From the sequence record PZ386952.1: a stretch of DNA of 61,166 nucleotides; one strand, written 5' to 3'. Below the pieces are notes generated by a model that saw only the letters and a list, made by a program, of their open reading frames with translations, was not told where the DNA came from and did not search any database. Each line of letters begins with the position of its first letter. Position 1 is the first letter of the stretch. A program made the position numbers and the translations under genes. This DNA is from a phage. This document shows positions 17,273-54,893 of this stretch, piece after piece.

Positions 17273-17290
17273 AAGGGGCGAAAGCCCCTT
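17273..17290. terminator. bidirectional stem-loop between convergent genes
   Basis: AAGGGGC-GAAA-GCCCCTT perfect hairpin at junction of + strand tail tip gene and - strand ORF. Confidence 0.55.
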
Positions 17291-18270
17291 TAATACATAT
17301 TTGGTAATGCGATAATTGGTGTCGGGATAACAATATTTCTTTCAGGTGCTGTTAGGGAGCCTAAGCTGTAGTTCCCTATCCGCTGATTTCTTTCAGCGCG
17401 TACTTTATTGTTATACATATGAACACCATTATAACGCACATTGTGATAACCGCCTGTATTAATTGTCCTCATTCCGTAGAACCCAAGTTGAATTAATCTA
17501 TCGCCAATATCCTGATCACTTGGTGTCAAAGTTAAAGTTTTATCAAATAAGAAAGGTTTCTTTACTGTGGAGAACGTAACCTGACCAGCGTTATTTGTCA
17601 TTGTAATACCGTCGCCCGGAGTTGGTGGGGTATTATTAAATATCACCAGCTCCATTGTTACACTAGCCGAAACATCATCCGTCCCAGAATAGGAAGAGTT
17701 TCTGACAATTATATTATTACCGTCAAACCCAACGGATATTCCGTTAGCATTCCATCTTGCAAAAGGGATACCCGATACTGGAAGTTGCATACTTCCGTTA
17801 ACTGTAACAGTACCAGCATACTGACAAGTCATTAATTTTGCATTATTTGAAATAGCTGTGAAATCCGTAGAGTTTGACACATACAGACCCGTGTTATATG
17901 TAGAAGCAGGTAATACTTCCATAATAGATCCTGCCCATTGTGGGAGTTTTCCAGTATACCCAAAAGGATTACCACCCCTTAAAATAACACCAGAATTACC
18001 ATTCCTGGAGATGGAGGAGATGTAGAAAGGTGAAGGGACTACAAGCCCCTGATCGTATACTTCGATAATTTCAACAGGTTTAGTAGGAATTACAAAAACT
18101 TCAGAAGCTTGGGTAAGAGTTGTATTAATTGTTAAAGTTTGATCAGACTGACAACGCTGATTAAAGTTAGCACAAAAAGATAAAGCCCGTAGACCTGACG
18201 TTATTTGCATTGCAGGTCTACCGTCATTGTAGTTTATGTAAATACCTTCAGGCATCATAGCCTCCAACAA
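17290..18270 (-). CDS. hypothetical beta-rich protein, candidate receptor-binding / host-range protein
   Basis: 326-aa Ser/Thr/Asn/Gly-rich ORF on the opposite strand inside the tail module; no signal peptide or lipobox. Confidence 0.4.
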   Translation of the reverse strand: MLEAMMPEGIYINYNDGRPAMQITSGLRALSFCANFNQRCQSDQTLTINTTLTQASEVFVIPTKPVEIIEVYDQGLVVPSPFYISSISRNGNSGVILRGGNPFGYTGKLPQWAGSIMEVLPASTYNTGLYVSNSTDFTAISNNAKLMTCQYAGTVTVNGSMQLPVSGIPFARWNANGISVGFDGNNIIVRNSSYSGTDDVSASVTMELVIFNNTPPTPGDGITMTNNAGQVTFSTVKKPFLFDKTLTLTPSDQDIGDRLIQLGFYGMRTINTGGYHNVRYNGVHMYNNKVRAERNQRIGNYSLGSLTAPERNIVIPTPIIALPNMY

Positions 18271-47679: not shown

Positions 47680-50016
47680 TTATTTGCTTAAGTCTTTGAA
47701 AACACTCTCAATCGACTCGTCTATATACCATCCCAACCCCCTGAAATTACGCTTCAATGCATCCTCACGCGTAACCGGAACAAGCGCGCCCATGTCTACA
47801 AGTTGTTTGATAGTGAGGTCTGTTGCCGTACCTGCTCCCATCCTGTGATTCTTGAATGCTGCTAGCCCGTAGGTTCTGCGTGTGATAGTTGCCTTCGGAA
47901 TAATACCGTCAACGCGAAGCTCCTTACGATCACATGCAATTTTACCGCCAAGATAGTCTTTGCAGACCTGGCAAATAGCCTTCACGCGCGTTTCATCATC
48001 ACCACCAATAGTACCTTTTTCCCATGCGTTGATCATGATGTCCTGCCCATGCGTAACAAAATCTACCGCCCATTGCATGTGATTGGGCTGAACGACAGGA
48101 TTGATCCAGTTTTCCCCTACCGCTAGCAGGGACGCAAGGCGCAGAGCTTTAAGGTGCGCACGGTTCCATGGCTGACGAATAGCTTCGTCTTTAGTTGCGT
48201 TAATGTGTTCATCACACAACAAGTTAAACTCCCGCTCAATCCTTGCAGCTTCCGGGCTTAACTGGACGGTAACGGTCTGGAACTTCGCCATTGTTACTAA
48301 CGTGTGGTTAACAAGATGGCACACCATGTCCTTTAATTGCTGAGGCATTGTGATTTCAGGATTCTCGTTTGCAGGAACTCGATCCCCTTCATATTGCACA
48401 ATGTGGAAACGGGACAAGAAACCGTCTTCCATCATTTCACGTGTTAACGCTTCAAAGAATGTGTCCGGTGTTGTTTCGCCCAAAACGCTGAACGCCACCC
48501 CTTCCATTGTCTTGGTATTATTGGCCTTATCAGAATATCCAATACCGCCAACAACATCCATCGCACCAGATTTTTGATACACATCTGTAATAGTTTGCTT
48601 CAAGGTGTAGTTCGCAGTGCCTGGCTGAGCTGTCGCCATACCTTTAATGGTTTTACCAAACTCACCGTTAATATTCACAAACGAAGTATGATCCGCAAAA
48701 CTTTTACGCAAGGCAGGACCGGAAGCATAGTTAGTCATGTCTACAAATTCATGCACTTGCGGCAATTGCTCGCCTACCTGCTTACAAATATAACTGGGCC
48801 CAGCGTGAAGCATTTCTTTACCCACACCTGATCGGGCAATAAGCACAAAGTAACCGTTCAACCCTGTGTTGGTGATAGTATTCCACACCTTGCCGCATAC
48901 GCCGGACAAGAATGCTAACGATGCAGTGATTGCAATTTCTTTCACCGGACGCTGCGATGCTTTGTAGATATACTTCGCAAGCTCACCAGCAAGACCCGGC
49001 GGCCATTCAATAGCGGTTGCATCAATGGACGTGCTTTCAGCAACTACAATTTCACCAGACGGGCTAACTGTGGTTACAGGCATTTCCGTTACCTGCTGCA
49101 TTGTGCTGTGTGCGGCTTGCATACGGGCAGCGTAATCCCGCGCCAGCGCCGCTACGTTCTCCTGAGCAATGCGTTCACGCTCCATGCGACCGCGGCACAT
49201 ACGCAAACAACGGTCAATATGAACGTTGTTCTTGTTAGCCTTCTCACGTTTACCCAGTGCACTGTAACGGAATAAACGACGACATTGCTCATTACTTTCC
49301 GTATAAAAAGCATACATGGAAATAAGAGCAAGATCTGCTTCAGACTGGGAAGGGAATCCCATTTCAACCCATTCCCCGTTGAATAACCGTGCATACTTGT
49401 CACCGTTGTCTGCTTCCAGTGCCCGCTGGTGAATAGTTGCGTCGTCTTCTACTGGATCTTTTTCTACCAGTTCGATTTCATATGTCTTGCGCTGAAGATC
49501 AATTTCATTCACAAGCATAGTAAGATAATGATCACGTTCGGCAACTGGTTTGTTATAGACAGGATTGCCCGTGCAGATAATAAAACGCTCCTGACTATAA
49601 ACCTCGACACCATCACGTCGACGACCTTTACCGATGTTGCCTCTTAACCACAGGTGAACGCCCAATCCTGAGCGACTTACTTCGGTGTAAGTATCGAACG
49701 CGGTCATGATCTGTTCAAAGCGGCGCAACTGTTCCGGCGTCGTGTGCTTCTTGGGATCCGGTTCATTGGTTGCGTTCTTCACATCCAGATCGATGCAGGT
49801 GAACGGGTCTTGTGCAGTAAGCACGAAGCCGATGTAAGGTTTGTTGAAATGCGCGGCGCAACCTTTAGCAGCTTCAAATGTCATAAGCATATCCGGATCG
49901 GTAACGTCTGCCACCATCAAACGTCCGATATCGTTGTCCCACACAAGCGGCTTTTTATCCGCATCGGCGACCGCCCATTGTGGGAAAGCTTTAATTTCAG
50001 CGGGAAACAGTTCCAT
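47680..50016 (-). CDS. DNA primase (prim-pol N-terminal domain with C-terminal NTPase-like region)
   Basis: 778 aa; CIDLD and SGLGVHLW prim-pol-like motifs; RBS AAGGT. Confidence 0.6.
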   Translation of the reverse strand: MELFPAEIKAFPQWAVADADKKPLVWDNDIGRLMVADVTDPDMLMTFEAAKGCAAHFNKPYIGFVLTAQDPFTCIDLDVKNATNEPDPKKHTTPEQLRRFEQIMTAFDTYTEVSRSGLGVHLWLRGNIGKGRRRDGVEVYSQERFIICTGNPVYNKPVAERDHYLTMLVNEIDLQRKTYEIELVEKDPVEDDATIHQRALEADNGDKYARLFNGEWVEMGFPSQSEADLALISMYAFYTESNEQCRRLFRYSALGKREKANKNNVHIDRCLRMCRGRMERERIAQENVAALARDYAARMQAAHSTMQQVTEMPVTTVSPSGEIVVAESTSIDATAIEWPPGLAGELAKYIYKASQRPVKEIAITASLAFLSGVCGKVWNTITNTGLNGYFVLIARSGVGKEMLHAGPSYICKQVGEQLPQVHEFVDMTNYASGPALRKSFADHTSFVNINGEFGKTIKGMATAQPGTANYTLKQTITDVYQKSGAMDVVGGIGYSDKANNTKTMEGVAFSVLGETTPDTFFEALTREMMEDGFLSRFHIVQYEGDRVPANENPEITMPQQLKDMVCHLVNHTLVTMAKFQTVTVQLSPEAARIEREFNLLCDEHINATKDEAIRQPWNRAHLKALRLASLLAVGENWINPVVQPNHMQWAVDFVTHGQDIMINAWEKGTIGGDDETRVKAICQVCKDYLGGKIACDRKELRVDGIIPKATITRRTYGLAAFKNHRMGAGTATDLTIKQLVDMGALVPVTREDALKRNFRGLGWYIDESIESVFKDLSK

Positions 50017-50345
50017 TATTTACCTTCGTTAGCAATCACTTTTAACAGGGATGTAATCACATCCTTAACTTTATCAACAGTGTTGAAAGCTGTATCTAAC
50101 GTGGCATAAGTGCCAATATAATGATATTCGTCCATAACTCTGATAAATGCGCGATATGAAGTAGGCTCACCTTTTAATTCCGCCTGCTCATCCACAGGTT
50201 GACAATAAGCGCATACTTCCTCAGATTGCCCATCCCCTTGCCATGGAGCAGGAACTCGAAACGTTTCTTTACCCCTTAATGGAATTATTCTAGCCATAGA
50301 TCTGTTTCCTCCGCCATTCTTCGTATGCTGAATTATTTGCGTCAT
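50016..50345 (-). CDS. hypothetical protein
   Basis: 109-aa ORF. Confidence 0.35.
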   Translation of the reverse strand: MTQIIQHTKNGGGNRSMARIIPLRGKETFRVPAPWQGDGQSEEVCAYCQPVDEQAELKGEPTSYRAFIRVMDEYHYIGTYATLDTAFNTVDKVKDVITSLLKVIANEGK

Positions 50346-50589
50346 ATACTTCGCAAGCGTCTTTCATGCTGTCGTACAGTCCAAGGAAAGTTCGCCTTGT
50401 TTCCCCGCCTGCATCTACCCATGTTAATCGGGCGAGCCATTTACCCGTTTTGTAATCGAAAGTAACGCCCTCACGCCCGCTCACATTCTCCCGCGGCACT
50501 CGCGGTTTCCGGCGTGCAAGCCCGCGCCCTTTGAAGTTGCTCCCCGGCACCGTGCGGCACTTACGACCCACGACCAACCTCCGACACAA
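50290..50589 (-). CDS. AP2-like DNA-binding domain protein
   Basis: GVTFDYKTGKWLARLTWVDAGGETRRTFLGLYDS...ACEVYDA resembles AP2/integrase-type DNA-binding domain; start uncertain. Confidence 0.4.
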   Translation of the reverse strand: MCRRLVVGRKCRTVPGSNFKGRGLARRKPRVPRENVSGREGVTFDYKTGKWLARLTWVDAGGETRRTFLGLYDSMKDACEVYDANNSAYEEWRRKQIYG

Positions 50590-50776
50590 TCCGACCAGCG
50601 TGCAACATTAAGACAGGCTCTGCAACTTCGCGCACGTAAACGTAAACGTTAGCAATTTTAACTTCGCCCGGCAGTTTACCGCGCAGCGAACACAACTTGC
50701 GACGGCTAAGACCGAAGCGGTTTTCAATTTCTGATGTGGTTATGTATTTAAGATCAAATTCTTTTTGACAGTCCAT
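50561..50776 (-). CDS. small HTH-like DNA-binding protein
   Basis: 71 aa; ITTSEIENRFGLSRRKLCSLR helix-turn-helix-like segment; GGAGGT RBS; first gene downstream of large non-coding region. Confidence 0.4.
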   Translation of the reverse strand: MDCQKEFDLKYITTSEIENRFGLSRRKLCSLRGKLPGEVKIANVYVYVREVAEPVLMLHAGRIVSEVGRGS

Positions 50777-50882
50777 ACCTACCTCCTAACAGCACTATAC
50801 ACAATCCATAGTAATGCAGCCACAATTATTCCACATGAAGTTATGATGTGAGCGGATTGTTAATATATAACCACATGTGATG

Positions 50883-50975
50883 GAAAGTTTTGGGTAGGAA
50901 TAGTTGGTGCTCCACAGTTTGCACAATGTGACGGAAAGTTTTGTGAGTTTTGCAAAGTTTTGCGAAGTTTTGTGG
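50883..50975. repeat. iteron-like direct repeats (A)AGTTTTG
   Basis: Five copies, four of them at 9-11 bp spacing (50936-50974). Confidence 0.7.
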
Positions 50976-51129
50976 TGCCACTGTTGCTAAAAACTTTAAT
51001 AAAAACAATAAGTTGGTGCAGTAAGTTTTTGCGTTTTGGGGTAAAACGCATTTTTTACCCTAACACCCAAATCCCGACTGTTAGTAAAAAACGTATATAA
51101 ATCAATAGCATAGATACTAAATGAGTAGC

Positions 51130-51495
51130 GATTGGAATGGGTAGAAATCCAAATGATGGAAGTGGAATAAATTATTCCTACTTGATAGAATAATGGAATC
51201 GGTACTCCAGAGCGCAAAAACCTAAAACTTTCAGTCAACAGGCTAAAAACGGATAGAAACTAAAAGTTAATAAGTAATACCATAACTATATATAAAATAA
51301 GGATTTATTATTAATGTATATAGTACCTATTGGTATTATTTGAATGTTTTTTGGTCATTGTTAAAAAGTCCCAAAACTCACAAAAAGTGAAAGAATACAA
51401 TTCGTGACAGGATTGTTAATGGAATATGGTGTATGGATATACAGTATTATTCCAGATTCCGGAATAATTGGAATAATGGAATAAATTATTGAACT
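51130..51495. repeat. TGGAATAA direct repeats and 15-bp palindrome GGAATAA-A-TTATTCC
   Basis: Palindrome at 51164-51178; tandem GGAATAATTGGAATAATGGAATAAATTATT near 51461-51490. Confidence 0.7.
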
Positions 51496-51605
51496 ATTGT
51501 GATCGGAAGGTATATCAAGCTATAATGCGCTTAATCGCGGGATATTGGAGGAGGACTTTATTGCGCGGTTAACCGGACCAGTAGGAGGGCTGGCCCGGAA
51601 GTAGT

Positions 51606-51932
51606 TTAGAGCTGTACAGGTGTGAAGTGGGCTAGCGTACCGTCGGACATAACACCCGACAGTTTTTCGCTCACCCATTCGGACCAAATGCTATCCGGTT
51701 CCTGGCGGTGCACAAACCAGATTTCGGATGTGCCTTCTTTGCGCATCGGTTGTACTTCTACGAGGAACTTGTCCTGCATAAGGCGAGTGAAGCATACGCT
51801 GGTCATTGGAACCGGCTTTTCGTGTTTATTGTAATAAGGGATTAATATTTTATTTCCGAAGTCGGCAACTTCATAAACTGTTCCTTTGCGTAGACCCCGG
51901 ATGTCAGTGTAAGAGCGGATGAACGTTTTCAT
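51606..51932 (-). CDS. hypothetical protein
   Basis: 108-aa ORF. Confidence 0.4.
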   Translation of the reverse strand: MKTFIRSYTDIRGLRKGTVYEVADFGNKILIPYYNKHEKPVPMTSVCFTRLMQDKFLVEVQPMRKEGTSEIWFVHRQEPDSIWSEWVSEKLSGVMSDGTLAHFTPVQL

Positions 51933-51934
51933 GT

Positions 51935-52111
51935 TTATTTCCTTACGAACACAGAGCCGACAAATAATGTTGATTGAGTAGCAGCTTGCTCGATTAATTC
52001 GCCAACAAGCTGGGACTGCGTCAGAGGTTTAAGGTCTTCTTTGGCGCGTGCTTCATTTACACGGCGCTGAAGGTCTTTTAGGTATTGAGTTGCGAAGCCG
52101 TCTAATTGCAT
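51935..52111 (-). CDS. small hypothetical protein (58 aa)
   Basis: ATG with AGGAGT RBS; MQLDGFATQYLKDLQRR...; below ORF-track cutoff. Confidence 0.4.
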   Translation of the reverse strand: MQLDGFATQYLKDLQRRVNEARAKEDLKPLTQSQLVGELIEQAATQSTLFVGSVFVRK

Positions 52112-52168
52112 TTTCGTTACTCCTAGGGCTCCCGCAGAAGCCCGTTGGTTGAACAGTGTGGTTATAGA

Positions 52169-52783
52169 TTATGCGTCCAGTCCGTTGTATTTGCGCCAGG
52201 CGTAGAACTGAATGGCCACCGTTGTTCCGTTGTAAGAAGGCATTGCAGCTTTCATTTCTTTCAGCCCCGGCGTGCGGCCCAGTTCCTTCAGAAGTTTGTC
52301 GCCCATTGCCCACACTTCGGCGGTTTTTCCTTTGAGAGGCTTGCGAGCGCCATTTTTGAAATCACAGCGAGCAGCTTTTGCATTCTGTTTTGACGAGGCA
52401 GCTTTTGGCTCTTCAATTTTGATTTCAGAAACCTGCGTGGCAGCTTTTGCATGTTTCATATCTTTCTCTTCCTCCTGCTCCAGAGCTTCGAGGCAGCTTT
52501 TGACGATTTCCGGATTTACCATCGGGCGCAGTACCGAGACGCTGGCAGCTGGCGCGGCGGTCGGTGCCGGGACTTTCTGCTCAGGCTGTTGCGCTTTTTC
52601 ATGATCGCGCAGCACCTGAAGAACTTCCTTCTCGATAATGTAAAAACCGATCTCGTCCTGATGGATAAGCTGTTCGTGTGCGTCGCGTGCAACCTGGCCC
52701 CAGCGGGTCTTCAGGGCGCGGCGTGCATTCGTTTTCATGGTGTAGCGCATTTTGTCCTGTTCGCGGTGAGTTACTTTAGACAT
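52169..52783 (-). CDS. hypothetical protein
   Basis: ATG at 52783 with AAAGGAG RBS (track start 52843); Ala/Pro/Lys-rich middle. Confidence 0.4.
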   Translation of the reverse strand: MSKVTHREQDKMRYTMKTNARRALKTRWGQVARDAHEQLIHQDEIGFYIIEKEVLQVLRDHEKAQQPEQKVPAPTAAPAASVSVLRPMVNPEIVKSCLEALEQEEEKDMKHAKAATQVSEIKIEEPKAASSKQNAKAARCDFKNGARKPLKGKTAEVWAMGDKLLKELGRTPGLKEMKAAMPSYNGTTVAIQFYAWRKYNGLDA

Positions 52784-52856
52784 GGTATAGCTCCTTTCGT
52801 TAAAGTTAGTTTGCTTATTATTGCCCACCGTGATAGTAGGCAATGTATAAGAAAAC

Positions 52857-53105
52857 TTATTGCACGATTGCTACGAAATCGGCGGTTGCGATATCCATGC
52901 TTGCGAAAGCAACGATGCCATAGTCGGTGTCGTTTTCGGCGTTAAACGCTTTGAGGAACTGCTGTACCGCTGCTTTATGGTTAAGCGTTACGTCGATAGC
53001 ATAGTCCCAGCTATAGACTTTGCGCTTGCCAAAACCTTTAACTGCAATGCGAGCGCCTTTAGTGTTGGTTGGTGCCAAAAATTTGGTGACGATAGAAGTA
53101 GCCAT
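52857..53105 (-). CDS. hypothetical protein
   Basis: 82-aa ORF. Confidence 0.4.
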   Translation of the reverse strand: MATSIVTKFLAPTNTKGARIAVKGFGKRKVYSWDYAIDVTLNHKAAVQQFLKAFNAENDTDYGIVAFASMDIATADFVAIVQ

Positions 53106-53327: not shown

Positions 53328-53570
53328 GATGTAACCCTTAATGTGGTTAAGCAGTATTGCTTTGTTGAAGTAATAATAGCCTTGCATCGTGATATTGAAT
53401 AGGCCAAAAGTGCTATTTTGATATTGTTTTGCATCTAGTGAAATTTATGCTTGCCCTGCATGTTTAGCACTAATGGCCTAACTAACATCACACCATCTGG
53501 AGTATTCGCGCGGGCGCACACATACATATAAAGCTGCCAAATATTTTTTATAAAAAGATGCAAAAAGGTG

Positions 53571-53599
53571 TAGACACATGATCGGTCTAGCGCTACTAT
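53571..53599 (+). promoter_or_regulatory. candidate sigma70-type promoter for + strand early-type gene block
   Basis: TAGACA, 17-nt spacer, TACTAT; ~50 nt upstream of ATG at 53649; lies in divergent intergenic region. Confidence 0.3.
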
Positions 53600-53648
53600 A
53601 TACACATACCGCAAGGGTACTACAAATTAACTTAAAGGGGTTTACATC

Positions 53649-54079: not shown

Positions 54080-54641
54080 CGCACACAGCAGCACCACAGC
54101 GAGCTAAAGCTCAAAGGTAATGGTAATGCATTACTAACACACAACGAGCGCGCTTTACCCCAAAAAGCGGCGCTAATTTCAACACTCACAAGCTGTACGT
54201 TAACGCGTACGGCTTGCTCTGCTATATGCGCCATGTATATAGCTAGCTCACGATATACATCAATATAATGACGAATGAAATAGATTTGTTTGGAAGAATA
54301 ACGGATCTTACAGTCACAGACAGGTCCAATGAGCTGACTCATAGACCCCACCTAGGATCATCAGGGTACTAATAATCACCCGAGGGCGCCTTATCCATCC
54401 TGATAGTAAGTGCTTGCCTAAATCTCACCTATCACCTCACTATCCACCTACATCCATGACCCCACCTACCTTCTTTTTGAATATATTGCGCTCATCCTTT
54501 CTAAATATATGGATTTTGGTAGTAAATTCTAAGTCGTCAACGTATAATTCGTCTTGTAGCTGCTCCATAGCTACCATCTTTGAGCGGATGCAACCAATTT
54601 CTATCAATTCACACCTGTTTTAGAGCATCAAGGAGGTATTT
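54080..54641 (+). other. palindrome-rich non-coding region
   Basis: GTAATGCATTAC (54123-54134), ACGTTAACGCGT (54198-54209), GCTATAT...ATATAGC (54221-54243), CACCT x5 (54424-54470); internal ORFs (54070-54351 -, 54414-54623 +) look spurious. Confidence 0.5.
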
Positions 54642-54893
54642 ATGTGCGACTCCAGTGCAAGCGCTACACCCAGCACCTCCAGCAATGTGGTTACAGAGGT
54701 AAATGCAATGCGATTAGGTCCATATCGCGGCTATTATGGTCGTGCTGCATGGAATGACGCTACTCAACGTTTTGAAGGCTGGATTATCTGTCCGGAACGT
54801 GTTAAATTTCACTCCGTAAAAGAGAAAAATATCGTTCTTAATTTTCAAAAATGTGTCACTAAATATGTAGAGGAGCAAGAAGAATGCGTGTAG
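54642..54893 (+). CDS. hypothetical protein
   Basis: 83-aa ORF with RBS AAGGAGG. Confidence 0.45.
   Translation: MCDSSASATPSTSSNVVTEVNAMRLGPYRGYYGRAAWNDATQRFEGWIICPERVKFHSVKEKNIVLNFQKCVTKYVEEQEECV

Follow-up and report, generated by a model that had tools for sequence, protein, structure and literature searches.

A conserved non-coding control region, and candidate replication origin, heading the replication genes of a Seuratvirus

The 829-bp gap at 50777-51605 of record PZ386952.1, a Seuratvirus (Queuovirinae) phage of E. coli whose 61,166 nt were analyzed in full (the window), is a non-coding cis-acting control region that heads the replication-gene operon. It is also the best candidate for the replication origin. 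That the gap combines a promoter/operator region with an origin is put at slightly better than even odds (a probability of about 0.55); the origin function, like each binding event and transcription start that is placed in the gap below, is something that we infer. A literature search found no papers on the origin, transcription starts or binding in Seuratviruses. The proposal of an origin and/or multi-operator region made in the initial annotation fits the non-coding state of the gap, its clustered repeats, its easily melted AT-rich segment and its sequence constraint; against it, DnaA boxes and classic iterons are missing.

The gap is flanked by two minus-strand genes, and the genes directly downstream of it are, as first described, those of a small DNA-binding protein, AP2-like proteins and a primase:

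50561-50776, minus strand: 71-aa ORF whose start adjoins the left end of the gap; the nearest gene downstream
50290-50589 and 50016-50345, minus strand: two small AP2-like proteins (99 and 109 aa), downstream of the 71-aa gene
47680-50016, minus strand: 778-aa primase-polymerase/SF3 helicase of NrS-1 type, downstream of the AP2-like genes
51606-51932, minus strand: 108-aa ORF, its stop bordering the right edge of the gap

The annotation of relatives places a divergent early region farther out, at 53388-53648. Cumulative GC skew has its minimum at ~50.6-50.8 kb, the left edge of the gap; since the skew here largely tracks gene orientation, this is weak evidence.

The gap had been called the longest ORF-free stretch of the genome. 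Mechanical ORFs of 43-80 aa do overlap its left part, but none of them is conserved, and the longest stretch free of ORFs of at least 60 aa on either strand is 51239-51605. Hidden small genes are very improbable: such ORFs exist, and one relative, OddieOddie, annotates a 63-aa ORF (gp67, corresponding to 50860-51051 on the minus strand), yet annotation tables leave all 829 bp empty in five of six close relatives, and the 63-aa ORF has no meaningful match in Pfam or PHROG. Comparison with the 72%-identical Salmonella phage STP-SP5 disposes of gp67 as a gene. None of the ORFs in the gap is conserved there, indels of 10, 21 and 11 nt break the frames, and six-frame comparison yields short matches only. 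Several frames, from either strand, score about equally well, which is the pattern expected of conserved DNA and not of coding sequence.

The conservation of the gap exceeds that of its surroundings. The initial annotation had named poor conservation among close relatives as an argument against itself; the gap is instead 96-100% identical among close relatives, versus 90-98% for the flanking ORFs, and 10 phages share it at 96-99%. To judge from these identities, it is under stronger constraint than the neighboring genes. An unannotated stretch of 526-1340 bp occupies the same position in every Seuratvirus examined. (A 15-mer scan of IMG/VR with AAACTTTCAGTCAAC gave 76 matches, only three of them on real Seuratvirus contigs.)

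The region is at the same time a hotspot of mosaic breakpoints. Three lineages carry different repeat families at this one place (AGTTTTG plus TGGAATAA, GCCACTAT, or CCCTATA), and which family a phage has goes with its version of the 71-aa protein (lineage A has LSRRKLCSLRGK, B has ISKFKLSRMREC and C has VSRYKLCRNRDI) and with the gp62-like or AP2-like genes linked to it. Physical linkage alone could produce this co-variation. That lineages exchange one repeat family for another speaks for the repeats as protein-binding sites. The primase-helicase is not an iteron-specific initiator for the lineage-specific repeats: SA126VB, with its GCCACTAT module, has a primase-helicase of 100% identical sequence. 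Among window ORFs of at least 40 aa, none fits as the TGGAATAA binder by its presence in Dru_SM1 and STP-SP5, which have the motif, and absence from SA126VB and CAjan, which do not. Both results weigh against the combined reading.

The elements of the gap, read from the replication genes outward, are the following:

50735-50742 (plus strand) and 50868-50875 (minus strand): inverted, outward-facing pair of the octamer TGTGGTTA, bracketing the 71-aa gene start and candidate promoter
50794-50852, minus strand: candidate leftward promoter(s) for the 71-aa/AP2-like/primase operon, from promoter scan and invariant blocks
50845-50876, no strand assigned: conserved block TGATGTGAGCGGATTGTTAATATATAACCACAT, near-invariant in comparison with STP-SP5, L042 and L096-L098
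50878-50974, plus strand: five-unit (A)AGTTTTG array, from enrichment and Tandem Repeats Finder (period 10)
51030-51056, plus strand only: hairpin TGCGTTTTGGGGTAAAACGCA followed by T6, intrinsic-terminator-like, from terminator scan and fold
51130-51205, no strand assigned: left TGGAATAA cluster, holding the palindrome GGAATAAATTATTCC (51164-51178) and GATAGAATAATGGAATCGG
51213-51265, minus strand: phased A-tract array, the reverse orientation of GTTTT units, holding an inverted 14-mer
51253-51352, no strand assigned: AT-rich core, candidate DNA-unwinding element; lowest GC, least stable duplex, conserved
51362-51386, minus strand: three more (A)GTTTT(G)-type units, reading AAAAAGTCCCAAAACTCACAAAAAG on the plus strand
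51420-51486, no strand assigned: right TGGAATAA cluster; dyad ATTATTCCAGA-T-TCCGGAATAAT at 51446-51468, plus (C/T)GGAATAA units repeated in tandem every 8-9 bp at 51460-51485
51488-51526, plus strand: outward sigma-70-type promoter; A/T-rich upstream stretch, TTGTGA at 51497-51502, 18-nt spacer, TATAAT at 51521-51526
51531-51605, plus strand: G-rich structured transcript region; stem-loop SL1 (51531-51572) exposes GGAGGAGGA, SL2 (51573-51598) exposes AGGAGG

Nearest the replication genes would lie the promoter of the 71-aa/AP2-like/primase operon. The promoter scan offers CTCACA-16-TGGAATAAT, whose extended -10 occupies 50833-50825; the second candidate is TATAGT at 50799-50794, which is invariant, and the GGAGG ribosome-binding site is at 50787-50783. 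These leftward candidates are weaker than the outward TTGTGA-18-TATAAT. The blocks GCCACAAyTATTCCA and GCACTATACA are invariant in relatives of 72-89% identity, and the 17-nt core GTGAGCGGATTGTTAAT of the conserved block at 50845-50876 recurs as a direct repeat at 51404-51420.

The five AGTTTTG repeats are spaced roughly by the helical turn, as had been noticed: plus-strand copies start at 50886, 50937, 50946, 50956 and 50966, so that four follow one another every 9-10 bp and one stands 51 bp upstream of them, and a single minus-strand copy is at 51372. The gap holds six of the 14 genome copies of AGTTTTG; at the density seen outside the gap, 0.11 would be expected (Poisson P = 2e-9). Two direct 14-mers TGAYGGAAAGTTTT at 50878 and 50929 are likewise 51 bp apart; the 14-mer TGAYNGAAAGTTTT has three copies in the genome, all within the gap, two of them direct and the third inverted (TGACTGAAAGTTTT, 51224-51237, minus strand). 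The inverted copy is found in every Seuratvirus examined. Farther right, 51362-51386 forms an inverted repeat with 50939-50961 (83% complementary) and is itself a tandem repeat of period 9. A wedge model (with provisional parameters) puts the highest predicted curvature of the genome at 50951, in the AGTTTTG array, and the third-highest at 51230, coinciding with the A-tract array, so that these two peaks flank the central part of the gap; AA/TT periodicity in the gap lies at the 96th-99.8th percentile. The T-tract phasing of the array is retained in STP-SP5 despite sequence change. "Iteron-like", the term first applied to these repeats, is apt for direct repeats in helical register; the units, at 7-14 bp, are nevertheless shorter than the 17-22 bp of classic iterons, and are better described as short phased T-tracts that predict static curvature.

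The AGTTTTG array is a candidate binding site of the adjacent 71-aa protein, which models as a MerR-like/excisionase-type winged helix and is probably DNA-binding. This classification came from structure prediction (pLDDT 84), sequence searches having returned no family: no Pfam family matches at E up to 0.1 (HTH_17, Phage_AlpA and MerR included), the PDB sequence search gives nothing below E = 0.6, the only PHROG matched is 11967, of unknown function, and among 1.8 billion representative proteins there are six relatives and no named family. Proteins of the same fold act on direct repeats elsewhere. BldC binds them as a cooperative multimer (PMC5859096), as do RdfS (PMC11963761) and D29 Gp36, a small MerR-like protein that acts as a repressor in a lytic mycobacteriophage (PMC12266134). 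In the proposed anatomy the phased AGTTTTG/T-tract array would bend the DNA and the 71-aa protein would probably coat it, in the manner of BldC, Xis, Cox and D29 Gp36 on direct repeats. GTTTT-type units are also present in the universal core of lineage B, where the variant of the 71-aa protein differs, so the array could be a static bend only.

In distant phages a small wHTH gene directly precedes the primase-helicase gene, with no large gap directly upstream of the pair, the latter a point against the favored reading; here, and likewise in closer relatives, small genes (one or two, in the window) lie between. The 778-aa protein matches Pfam NrS1-1_pol-like_HBD and DUF3987, as well as PHROG 3022, annotated as DNA primase. 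The Pfam match to AP2 is weak (E = 2.5e-4, below the curated cut-off); the small proteins of the window share an AP2-like signature with proteins of 147-151 aa and 94 aa in L096 and STP-SP5.

The second family of sites is strongly clustered as well. Seven of the 16 genome copies of GGAATAA are in the gap (P = 8e-11), as are five of the ten copies of TGGAATAA, for which whole-genome shuffles average 2.7 copies and never reach 10. (The copies of TGGAATAA and AAGTTTTG at 24-25 kb are inside ORFs, apparently by chance.) The copies in the gap form two clusters, at about 51133-51201 and 51420-51485, much where the initial annotation had placed them, and its 15-bp palindrome at 51164-51178 is real: GGAATAA-A-TTATTCC, two 7-nt arms about one central base. 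In the left cluster the block TCCAAATGATGGAAGTGGAATAAATTATTCCTACTTGATAGAATAATGGAATCGG is nearly invariant across lineage A. The right cluster occurs only in lineage A, STP-SP5 and Dru_SM1, other phages having an unrelated, shorter stretch in its place; in L096 and L098 one tandem unit is absent and the dyad is present as its own reverse complement, so that its symmetry is retained. The TGGAATAAT dyads and tandem units would serve a second binder, for which the AP2-like proteins are candidates; the same sites also resemble extended -10 promoter elements.

Between the clusters, the AT-rich tracts of the initial annotation resolve into a core at 51253-51352 with 17% GC; no other 100 bp of the 61-kb genome has so low a GC content or so unstable a duplex (-102 kcal/mol, versus -110 for the next window of that size). 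Its sequence is kept at 83-96% in all the lineages of Seuratviruses examined. The proposed anatomy sets this most easily melted segment beside the oppositely oriented A-tract array. Sites for the usual host factors were not found within 50700-51650: there is no TTATCCACA with at most one mismatch, no perfect TTWTNCACA, and no IHF consensus WATCAANNNNTTR.

The outward promoter faces away from the replication genes and matches the consensus at 10 of 12 positions; its spacer contains GATC. It is near-invariant in 10 phages and is the sole promoter-like site that all the lineages scanned have in common. Two unrelated HNH endonuclease genes lie downstream of it on the plus strand, one in STP-SP5 and the other in Dru_SM1 and SLUR76, and in these phages homology to the window stops right after the -10 hexamer. 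The segment that follows is G-rich (GC skew +0.37); close relatives have it at 98-100% identity, and lineages B and C have the identical sequence. Its plus-strand RNA, 51531-51612, is predicted to fold at -31 kcal/mol (z = -4.1; none of 200 shuffled sequences matched this stability), versus -21.8 kcal/mol (z = -2.2) for the minus strand. On the minus strand SL2 is a hairpin just past the stop of the 108-aa gene, and its equivalent in SA126VB is annotated as a terminator. The conserved promoter would fire outward into a G-rich, folded RNA of ~70 nt whose second hairpin would also end the upstream leftward early operon. The other hairpin, at 51030-51056, is present in close relatives, but L096-L098 and STP-SP5 lack it; it can probably be dispensed with, and was set aside as an essential terminator or sRNA end.

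The octamer TGTGGTTA is a feature of the whole genome. What had been noted as a TGTGGTTAT variant (50867-50875, minus strand) is not a DnaA box: it has two mismatches to the DnaA-box consensus and belongs to the 53 genome-wide copies of TGTGGTTA, which are 24 times the number expected from base composition and are not enriched in the gap. They are evenly spaced, alternate between strands more than chance would have it, and are kept in place by selection; both members of the outward-facing pair are conserved in all lineage-A relatives, STP-SP5 and L096 included. The motifs of DpdA modification in CAjan (GA, GGC and GGT; PMC10484667) are not an 8-mer, which eliminates a modification motif as the source of TGTGGTTA. 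A literature search found nothing on TGTGGTTA in phages. In L102 the dominant octamer is AGATCGTT instead. TGTGGTTA contains GTGG and matches the recognition site of the NrS-1 primase, TTTGGTTA, at seven of eight positions, and the primase encoded in the window matches the NrS-1 helix-bundle domain, the reader of that site. It is conceivable, if rather doubtful, that the gap is a Seuratvirus origin with a dedicated priming code in which TGTGGTTA is the template recognition site of an NrS-1-type primase-polymerase. The outward-facing pair at 50735/50875, which brackets the left edge of the gap beside bent arrays and melted core, would then launch two leading strands, and priming of the lagging strand would use the dispersed copies. 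The timing of origin firing would be set by winged-helix and AP2-like proteins, particular to each lineage, on the swappable modules. The likeness to NrS-1 has its bounds: the octamer of the window is dispersed over the genome, not confined to the gap, and an NrS-1-like specificity of the primase is putative.

Origins of the SaPI/PICI and P4 type adjoin a primase/SF3-helicase gene (pri-rep, P4 alpha), often with an AlpA-type winged-helix gene upstream. The window shares with them a replication enzyme that joins a primase to an SF3 helicase of DUF3987/D5 type, a small AlpA/excisionase-like winged-helix gene just upstream of the gene for that enzyme, two sets of short non-coding repeats around an AT-rich segment, and a repeat specificity that varies among otherwise near-identical elements. 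It differs in that the gap is upstream of the operon and not downstream of rep; that its repeat units are 7-14 bp long, with no indication of helicase binding; and that, in contrast to the Rep-iteron pairing of SaPI and P4, its repeats co-vary with winged-helix, AP2-like and gp62-like genes and not with the primase-helicase.

The primary origin of T7 consists of promoters 1.1A and 1.1B and an AT-rich region, and oriF and oriG of T4 of a middle promoter and a DNA-unwinding element, with an R-loop as primer. The conserved promoters of the window are, similarly, directly beside the most meltable segment of the genome, and the G-rich transcript would favor a stable RNA-DNA hybrid. The outward promoter, however, points away from the AT-rich core, and the phage encodes no RNA polymerase; an R-loop or priming by transcripts is hypothetical here.

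The origin of lambda lies inside gene O, with four 19-bp iterons bound by the O protein. Its cII-oop-ori region resembles the gap in having a short structured RNA with a constitutive-looking promoter, located between early genes and replication genes and running toward the 3' end of the early operon upstream. The difference is that the RNA of the window would overlap only the 3' untranslated hairpin and no coding region, and has neither sequence similarity to it nor an Rfam match. Lambda Xis and P2 Cox are small winged-helix proteins that coat direct repeats. With these, and with BldC, RdfS and Gp36, the 71-aa protein has its predicted fold and its size in common, along with a head-to-tail array of 4-5 short repeats at ~10 bp immediately upstream of its gene. 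The repeats of the window are, in contrast, T-tract based and their binding is putative, the 71-aa protein has no Pfam match, and the repeats of lineages B and C are in both orientations and not head-to-tail.

These facts must also be weighed against a purely transcriptional control region, a serious contender that falls short of even odds. The gap would then consist of the early-operon terminator, regulated middle promoter(s) with operators and bent DNA, and the outward antisense promoter, the origin being elsewhere, for example inside a gene. Conservation of the outward promoter accords with it, as do the hairpin past the 108-aa gene with its annotated counterpart, the match of TGGAATAAT to an extended -10 (TGnTATAAT-like) 49-57 bp upstream of the 71-aa ATG, and the co-variation of repeat modules with small regulators and not with the primase. 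Curved DNA upstream of promoters is a known activator, and counts on the same side; so does repression via direct repeats by small MerR-like proteins such as D29 Gp36 (PMC12266134). What transcriptional control alone leaves unexplained is the universal presence of the least stable duplex between oppositely oriented arrays, and 829 bp constrained more tightly than coding DNA. It is, moreover, compatible with a role as origin, the origins of T7 and T4 being promoters joined to an unwinding element.

That non-coding RNAs are the main products of the gap is unlikely. The proposal is of a ~70-nt RNA (51533 to ~51600), an antisense or decoy like lambda oop with exposed GGAGG loops, and maybe a second plus-strand RNA that ends at 51030-51056, where the hairpin and T6 resemble a plus-strand terminator. 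The stability of the plus-strand fold relative to the minus strand, the promoter directly upstream, and the invariance of the segment in lineages A, B and C while the neighboring core varies speak for an RNA. Rfam 15 has no match at gathering thresholds anywhere in the window, and within the gap, at E up to 10, two chance-level matches (E = 2 and E = 8) far below gathering scores; a tRNA/tmRNA scan found none. Since the segment does not vary, it offers no covariation; its sole variant, in L042, breaks the base of SL1 and is uncompensated. No U-tract follows SL2, replacement by HNH genes in three phages makes the segment dispensable or replaceable, neither L096 nor STP-SP5 conserves the 51030 hairpin, and RNAs would in any case account for at best ~120 of the 829 bp. 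Still less probable, at a few chances in a hundred, is a packaging (pac/cos) site or a functionless, recombination-scarred mosaic junction. Breakpoints do concentrate here and some database records begin nearby (SLUR76, for example), but record start points are arbitrary. Pac and cos sites normally adjoin terminase genes, and some 10 kb separate the gap from the presumed large terminase gene, a 519-aa ORF at position 1; conservation above that of the coding flanks, and motifs kept at 72% overall identity, argue for function.

On the favored interpretation, a promoter/operator region combined with an origin, the AT-rich core would be opened jointly by proteins on the bent flanks and by transcription from the promoters on either side. 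DNA synthesis by the NrS-1-type primase-helicase would follow, and the same sites would time when the replication genes are expressed.

Phages of E. coli and Salmonella with 7-deazaguanine DNA, the Queuovirinae, Seuratviruses among them, have been isolated widely, are represented in the BASEL collection and are considered for therapy; their origin and their switch from early to middle genes are unmapped. The gap offers an 829-bp target whose parts can be tested one by one: the promoter, the structured RNA, the unwinding element, the bent arrays, both families of sites and the candidate binder. Three lineages that swap site modules in otherwise near-identical genomes constitute a natural experiment on specificity. 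A conserved, evenly spaced octamer that resembles a known primase site could make the template specificity of phage primase-polymerases testable in vivo. Should the gap prove to be the origin, phage engineering and the building of phage-dependent plasmids would have to spare it or could put it to use.

Every element that the initial annotation listed in the gap at 50777-51605 is found where it had been placed, and the repeats exceed chance by far. The palindrome is GGAATAA-A-TTATTCC (51164-51178); among the AT-rich tracts, 51253-51352 is, at 17% GC, the lowest-GC 100 bp of the genome and also, thermodynamically, its least stable.

Repeats in the gap and in the genome
AGTTTTG: 6 in the gap (0.11 expected, P = 2e-9), 14 in the genome
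GGAATAA: 7 in the gap (P = 8e-11), 16 in the genome
TGGAATAA: 5 in the gap, 10 in the genome (whole-genome shuffles: mean 2.7, 10 never reached)
14-mer TGAYNGAAAGTTTT, at most one mismatch: 3 in the gap, 3 in the genome, at 50878 (+), 50929 (+) and 51224 (-)

Mechanical calling yields ORFs that overlap the gap in its left part. The gap is treated here as non-coding, because the annotation tables of five of six close relatives leave the whole of it empty and because indels destroy its every reading frame in Salmonella phage STP-SP5 (72% identical). Nor is it poorly conserved among close relatives: in six of them, the identity of four sub-segments is 92-100%, mostly 96-100%, against 90-98% for the flanking AP2-like, 71-aa, 108-aa, 58-aa and 204-aa genes. 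Conservation above that of its coding neighbors argues that the gap must hold dense function.

Megablast with 50500-51950 matches 34 phage records, 33 of which are Seuratvirus (Queuovirinae) or clearly related, with Escherichia phage OddieOddie as top match (97%). The gene order of the window agrees with that of annotated relatives; a scan finds no tRNA genes in the window, and an Rfam search finds no Rfam families there.

Layout of the genome and borders of the gap
Up to ~24 kb, plus strand: structural genes
~24.1-53.4 kb, minus strand: long block of DNA polymerase, queuosine-pathway, recombination and primase genes
50561-50776, minus strand: 71-aa ORF, its start forming the left border of the gap
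51606-51932, minus strand: 108-aa ORF, its stop forming the right border
53.65 kb onward, plus strand: second plus-strand block

A minus-strand 326-aa ORF (17290-18270), with short unassigned stretches on either side, interrupts the otherwise plus-strand structural block, and at 54424-54468 a 12-nt unit, CTCACCTATCAC, is repeated imperfectly in tandem ~3.7 times within a C-rich stretch upstream of the plus-strand gene starting at 54642. In the minus-strand genes at 51606-53105 AT skew is strongly negative (down to -0.40) and GC skew is positive, opposite to the negative GC skew of the rest of the minus-strand block; the local switch at the gap is therefore not simply a matter of gene orientation.

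BLAST and alignments against 15 relatives split the gap into four modules.

Modules of the gap
50777-51215: left module, lineage A only
51216-51400: very AT-rich core, every Seuratvirus (83-96%)
51400-51483: right TGGAATAA cluster, lineage A and the recombinant Dru_SM1 only
51484-51600: right end, all lineages, almost invariant

Lineage A comprises the window, OddieOddie, ECP2304, GottfriedDienst, Skure, SLUR25/63, VogelGryff, KS_W4, PLYYY01, RCIP0359, STP-SP5 and the more divergent contigs L042 and L096-L098; lineage B comprises SA126VB, WildeMaa, CSP1C, Dru_SM1 and KurtStettler; lineage C comprises Seurat, CAjan and SLUR76. Lineages B and C have, in place of the left module, a 242-260-aa gene (PHROG 27223, function unknown) and ~300 bp of different non-coding DNA that carries repeats of its own in both orientations: GCCACTAT four to five times in lineage B, CCCTATA six to seven times in lineage C. 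Three repeat families at one locus, in genomes otherwise 90%-plus identical, appear to be the signature of exchangeable protein/binding-site modules, with nearby small genes as candidate binders. The 71-aa homologue varies between lineages in its predicted recognition region, and STP-SP5 and L096 retain the lineage-A recognition sequence together with the AGTTTTG array; physical linkage alone could also explain this co-variation. The primase-helicase breaks the lineage pattern, the window copy being 100% identical to that of lineage-B SA126VB. Two small AP2-like proteins are encoded between the 71-aa gene and the primase in lineage A (window 50016-50589, minus strand; L096 3206-3930; STP-SP5, record L014, 3300-3755), and in lineages B and C the PHROG 27223 protein is encoded between the 71-aa homologue and the gap (record L002, 2926-3708); the two look like alternative, exchangeable cassettes.

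Sequence methods place the 71-aa protein in no named family; its AlphaFold2 model (pLDDT 84) has the winged-helix order of helices and strands. Distant phages carry homologues (41-47% identity) immediately upstream of NrS-1-type primase-helicase genes, and this retained pairing suggests that the two genes are an old module; in the closer relative L096 two small genes separate them. The pair is reminiscent of satellites, in which alpA is followed by pri-rep. The distant phage L102 (Logan SRR20958181 contig, 6.2 kb) likewise pairs a small winged-helix gene with a primase-helicase gene. BldC forms cooperative head-to-tail multimers on direct repeats (PMC5859096); the MerR-like Gp36 of lytic phage D29 also binds direct repeats, repressing genes that lie downstream (PMC12266134); RdfS is reported to be an oligomeric winged-helix protein, in a class whose members often form oligomers on DNA (PMC11963761).

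The TGGAATAA sites take several forms.

TGGAATAA sites
50825-50833, minus strand: single copy, 49-57 bp upstream of the ATG of the 71-aa gene
51164-51178: palindrome with 7-bp arms
51446-51468: divergent dyad
51460-51485: two to three tandem units, 8-9 bp apart

At the single copy, TGGAATAAT reads as a putative extended -10 element. In the region aligned to 51446-51485, L096 and L098 have one tandem unit fewer (two vs three) and carry the 23-bp dyad in reverse-complement form; symmetry is therefore the preserved feature. No gene was found that is present in the motif-bearing Dru_SM1 and STP-SP5 yet missing from SA126VB and CAjan; the two lineage-A AP2-like proteins are candidates that may bind TGGAATAA.

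The AGTTTTG units supply T4 tracts from 50939, 50948, 50958 and 50968, with one more at 50888. STP-SP5 keeps the ~10-bp phasing with altered unit sequences (AAAGTTTTGTG, CTTTTTGC, AAAGTTTTGC, AACTTTTTGG and GGTACTTTTTGCGG). Wedge-model curvature of the whole genome, an approximate calculation, places the strongest predicted bend at 50951 and the third-strongest at 51230, the site of opposite-orientation A-tracts; parameter-free AA/TT periodicity at both lies in the 96th-99.8th percentile. From curvature and periodicity, the AGTTTTG array is predicted to be bent, and it may bind protein as well. A strongly conserved block contains TGTGAGCGGAT (50847-50857; partial copy at 51404-51420), which matches the core of the lac operator O1 of E. 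coli over 11 bases in a row. LacI binding at 50847-50857 is unlikely, because the second half-site is absent.

Near-invariant in ten phages, TTGTGA-18-TATAAT at the right end (51497-51526, plus strand) is the one promoter-like element that every scanned lineage shares. Homology to the window stops immediately past its -10 hexamer in STP-SP5, Dru_SM1 and SLUR76, where unrelated plus-strand HNH endonuclease genes, acquired independently in STP-SP5 and in Dru_SM1 and SLUR76, replace the hairpin region and the 108-aa gene (STP-SP5, L014 4783-5259; Dru_SM1, L012 2940-3269; SLUR76, L013 3171-3500). The STP-SP5 gene encodes an HNH-AP2 endonuclease (Pfam); the 109-110-aa gene of Dru_SM1 and SLUR76 has no Pfam match and is a putative HNH endonuclease by annotation in SLUR76 only. 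This placement of HNH genes suggests that the outward promoter is active and exploited by selfish genes. In the window this promoter runs into G-rich sequence (GC skew +0.37) whose plus-strand RNA folds into two hairpins (-31 kcal/mol, z = -4.1; none of 200 shuffles was as stable), compared with -21.8 kcal/mol and z = -2.2 for the minus strand. Just past the stop of the leftward 108-aa gene lies the second hairpin, which carries a terminator annotation in SA126VB. The segment is invariant apart from a single variant (L042), which is uncompensated, and therefore offers no covariation.

The initial annotation read the gap as an origin and/or a multi-operator control region, and this stands in part. 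For a protein-bound region controlling transcription of the replication operon we estimate a probability of about three quarters; that replication starts in the gap is slightly short of an even bet, and the two are compatible. An origin is favored by the adjoining replication genes, by a universal, extremely unstable core between oppositely oriented repeat arrays and bends, by promoters on both sides and by a cumulative GC-skew minimum at the gap's left edge. Against it, or neutral, are the absence of DnaA and IHF sites from a scan of the gap, a primase that does not co-vary with the repeats, and GC skew that in the window largely tracks gene orientation. A literature search found no experimental data on Seuratvirus origins, transcription starts or binding.

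The main correction concerns the TGTGGTTAT element: it is a copy of the dispersed octamer TGTGGTTA, whose 53 copies in 61 kb compare with 2.2 predicted by base composition (24-fold; sites include 681, 2786, 24403, 50735, 50868 and 60259). No octamer is commoner than TGTGGTTA in the window or in the four Seuratvirus relatives tested. More distant Queuovirinae-like contigs also have it often (4-6 copies per 6.2 kb), but the 6.2-kb L102 lacks it; records that carry it include L016-L019 and L099-L101. Copies lie on both strands and within coding regions in any frame, and G is never the next base (0 of 53). Spacing is more regular than random (CV 0.60 vs 0.97, P < 2e-4), strands alternate above chance (P = 0.007), and in STP-SP5 69% of aligned sites are intact vs 20% of control octamers (P = 1.6e-8). 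No literature on TGTGGTTA was found. TGTGGTTA is not the DpdA modification motif of CAjan, reported as GA, GGC or GGT (PMC10484667). The NrS-1 primase-polymerase recognizes 5'-TTTGGTTA-3' and, also efficiently, GTGG (PMC8718748); TGTGGTTA matches TTTGGTTA at seven of eight positions, differing in one base, and contains GTGG, and the NrS-1-type helix-bundle domain, which reads sites of this kind, is present in the window primase. The copies at 50735 (+) and 50875 (-) face outward: were priming to begin, as it does in NrS-1, on the template immediately 5' of the site, synthesis from the pair would proceed in opposite directions away from the gap's left edge. Because similar close pairs occur elsewhere in the genome, this pair is a lead, not evidence. 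In L102, AGATCGTT occurs five times against 0.24 expected; it may be another dispersed octamer, one that goes with a different primase.

As a control region of a phage replication operon and a candidate origin, the gap belongs to a familiar class, of which it is an uncharacterized member. It is a good target for experiments because its architecture is cleanly modular and its binding-site modules are swapped between lineages. The genome-wide octamer TGTGGTTA is a more surprising result than the gap itself and merits its own follow-up.
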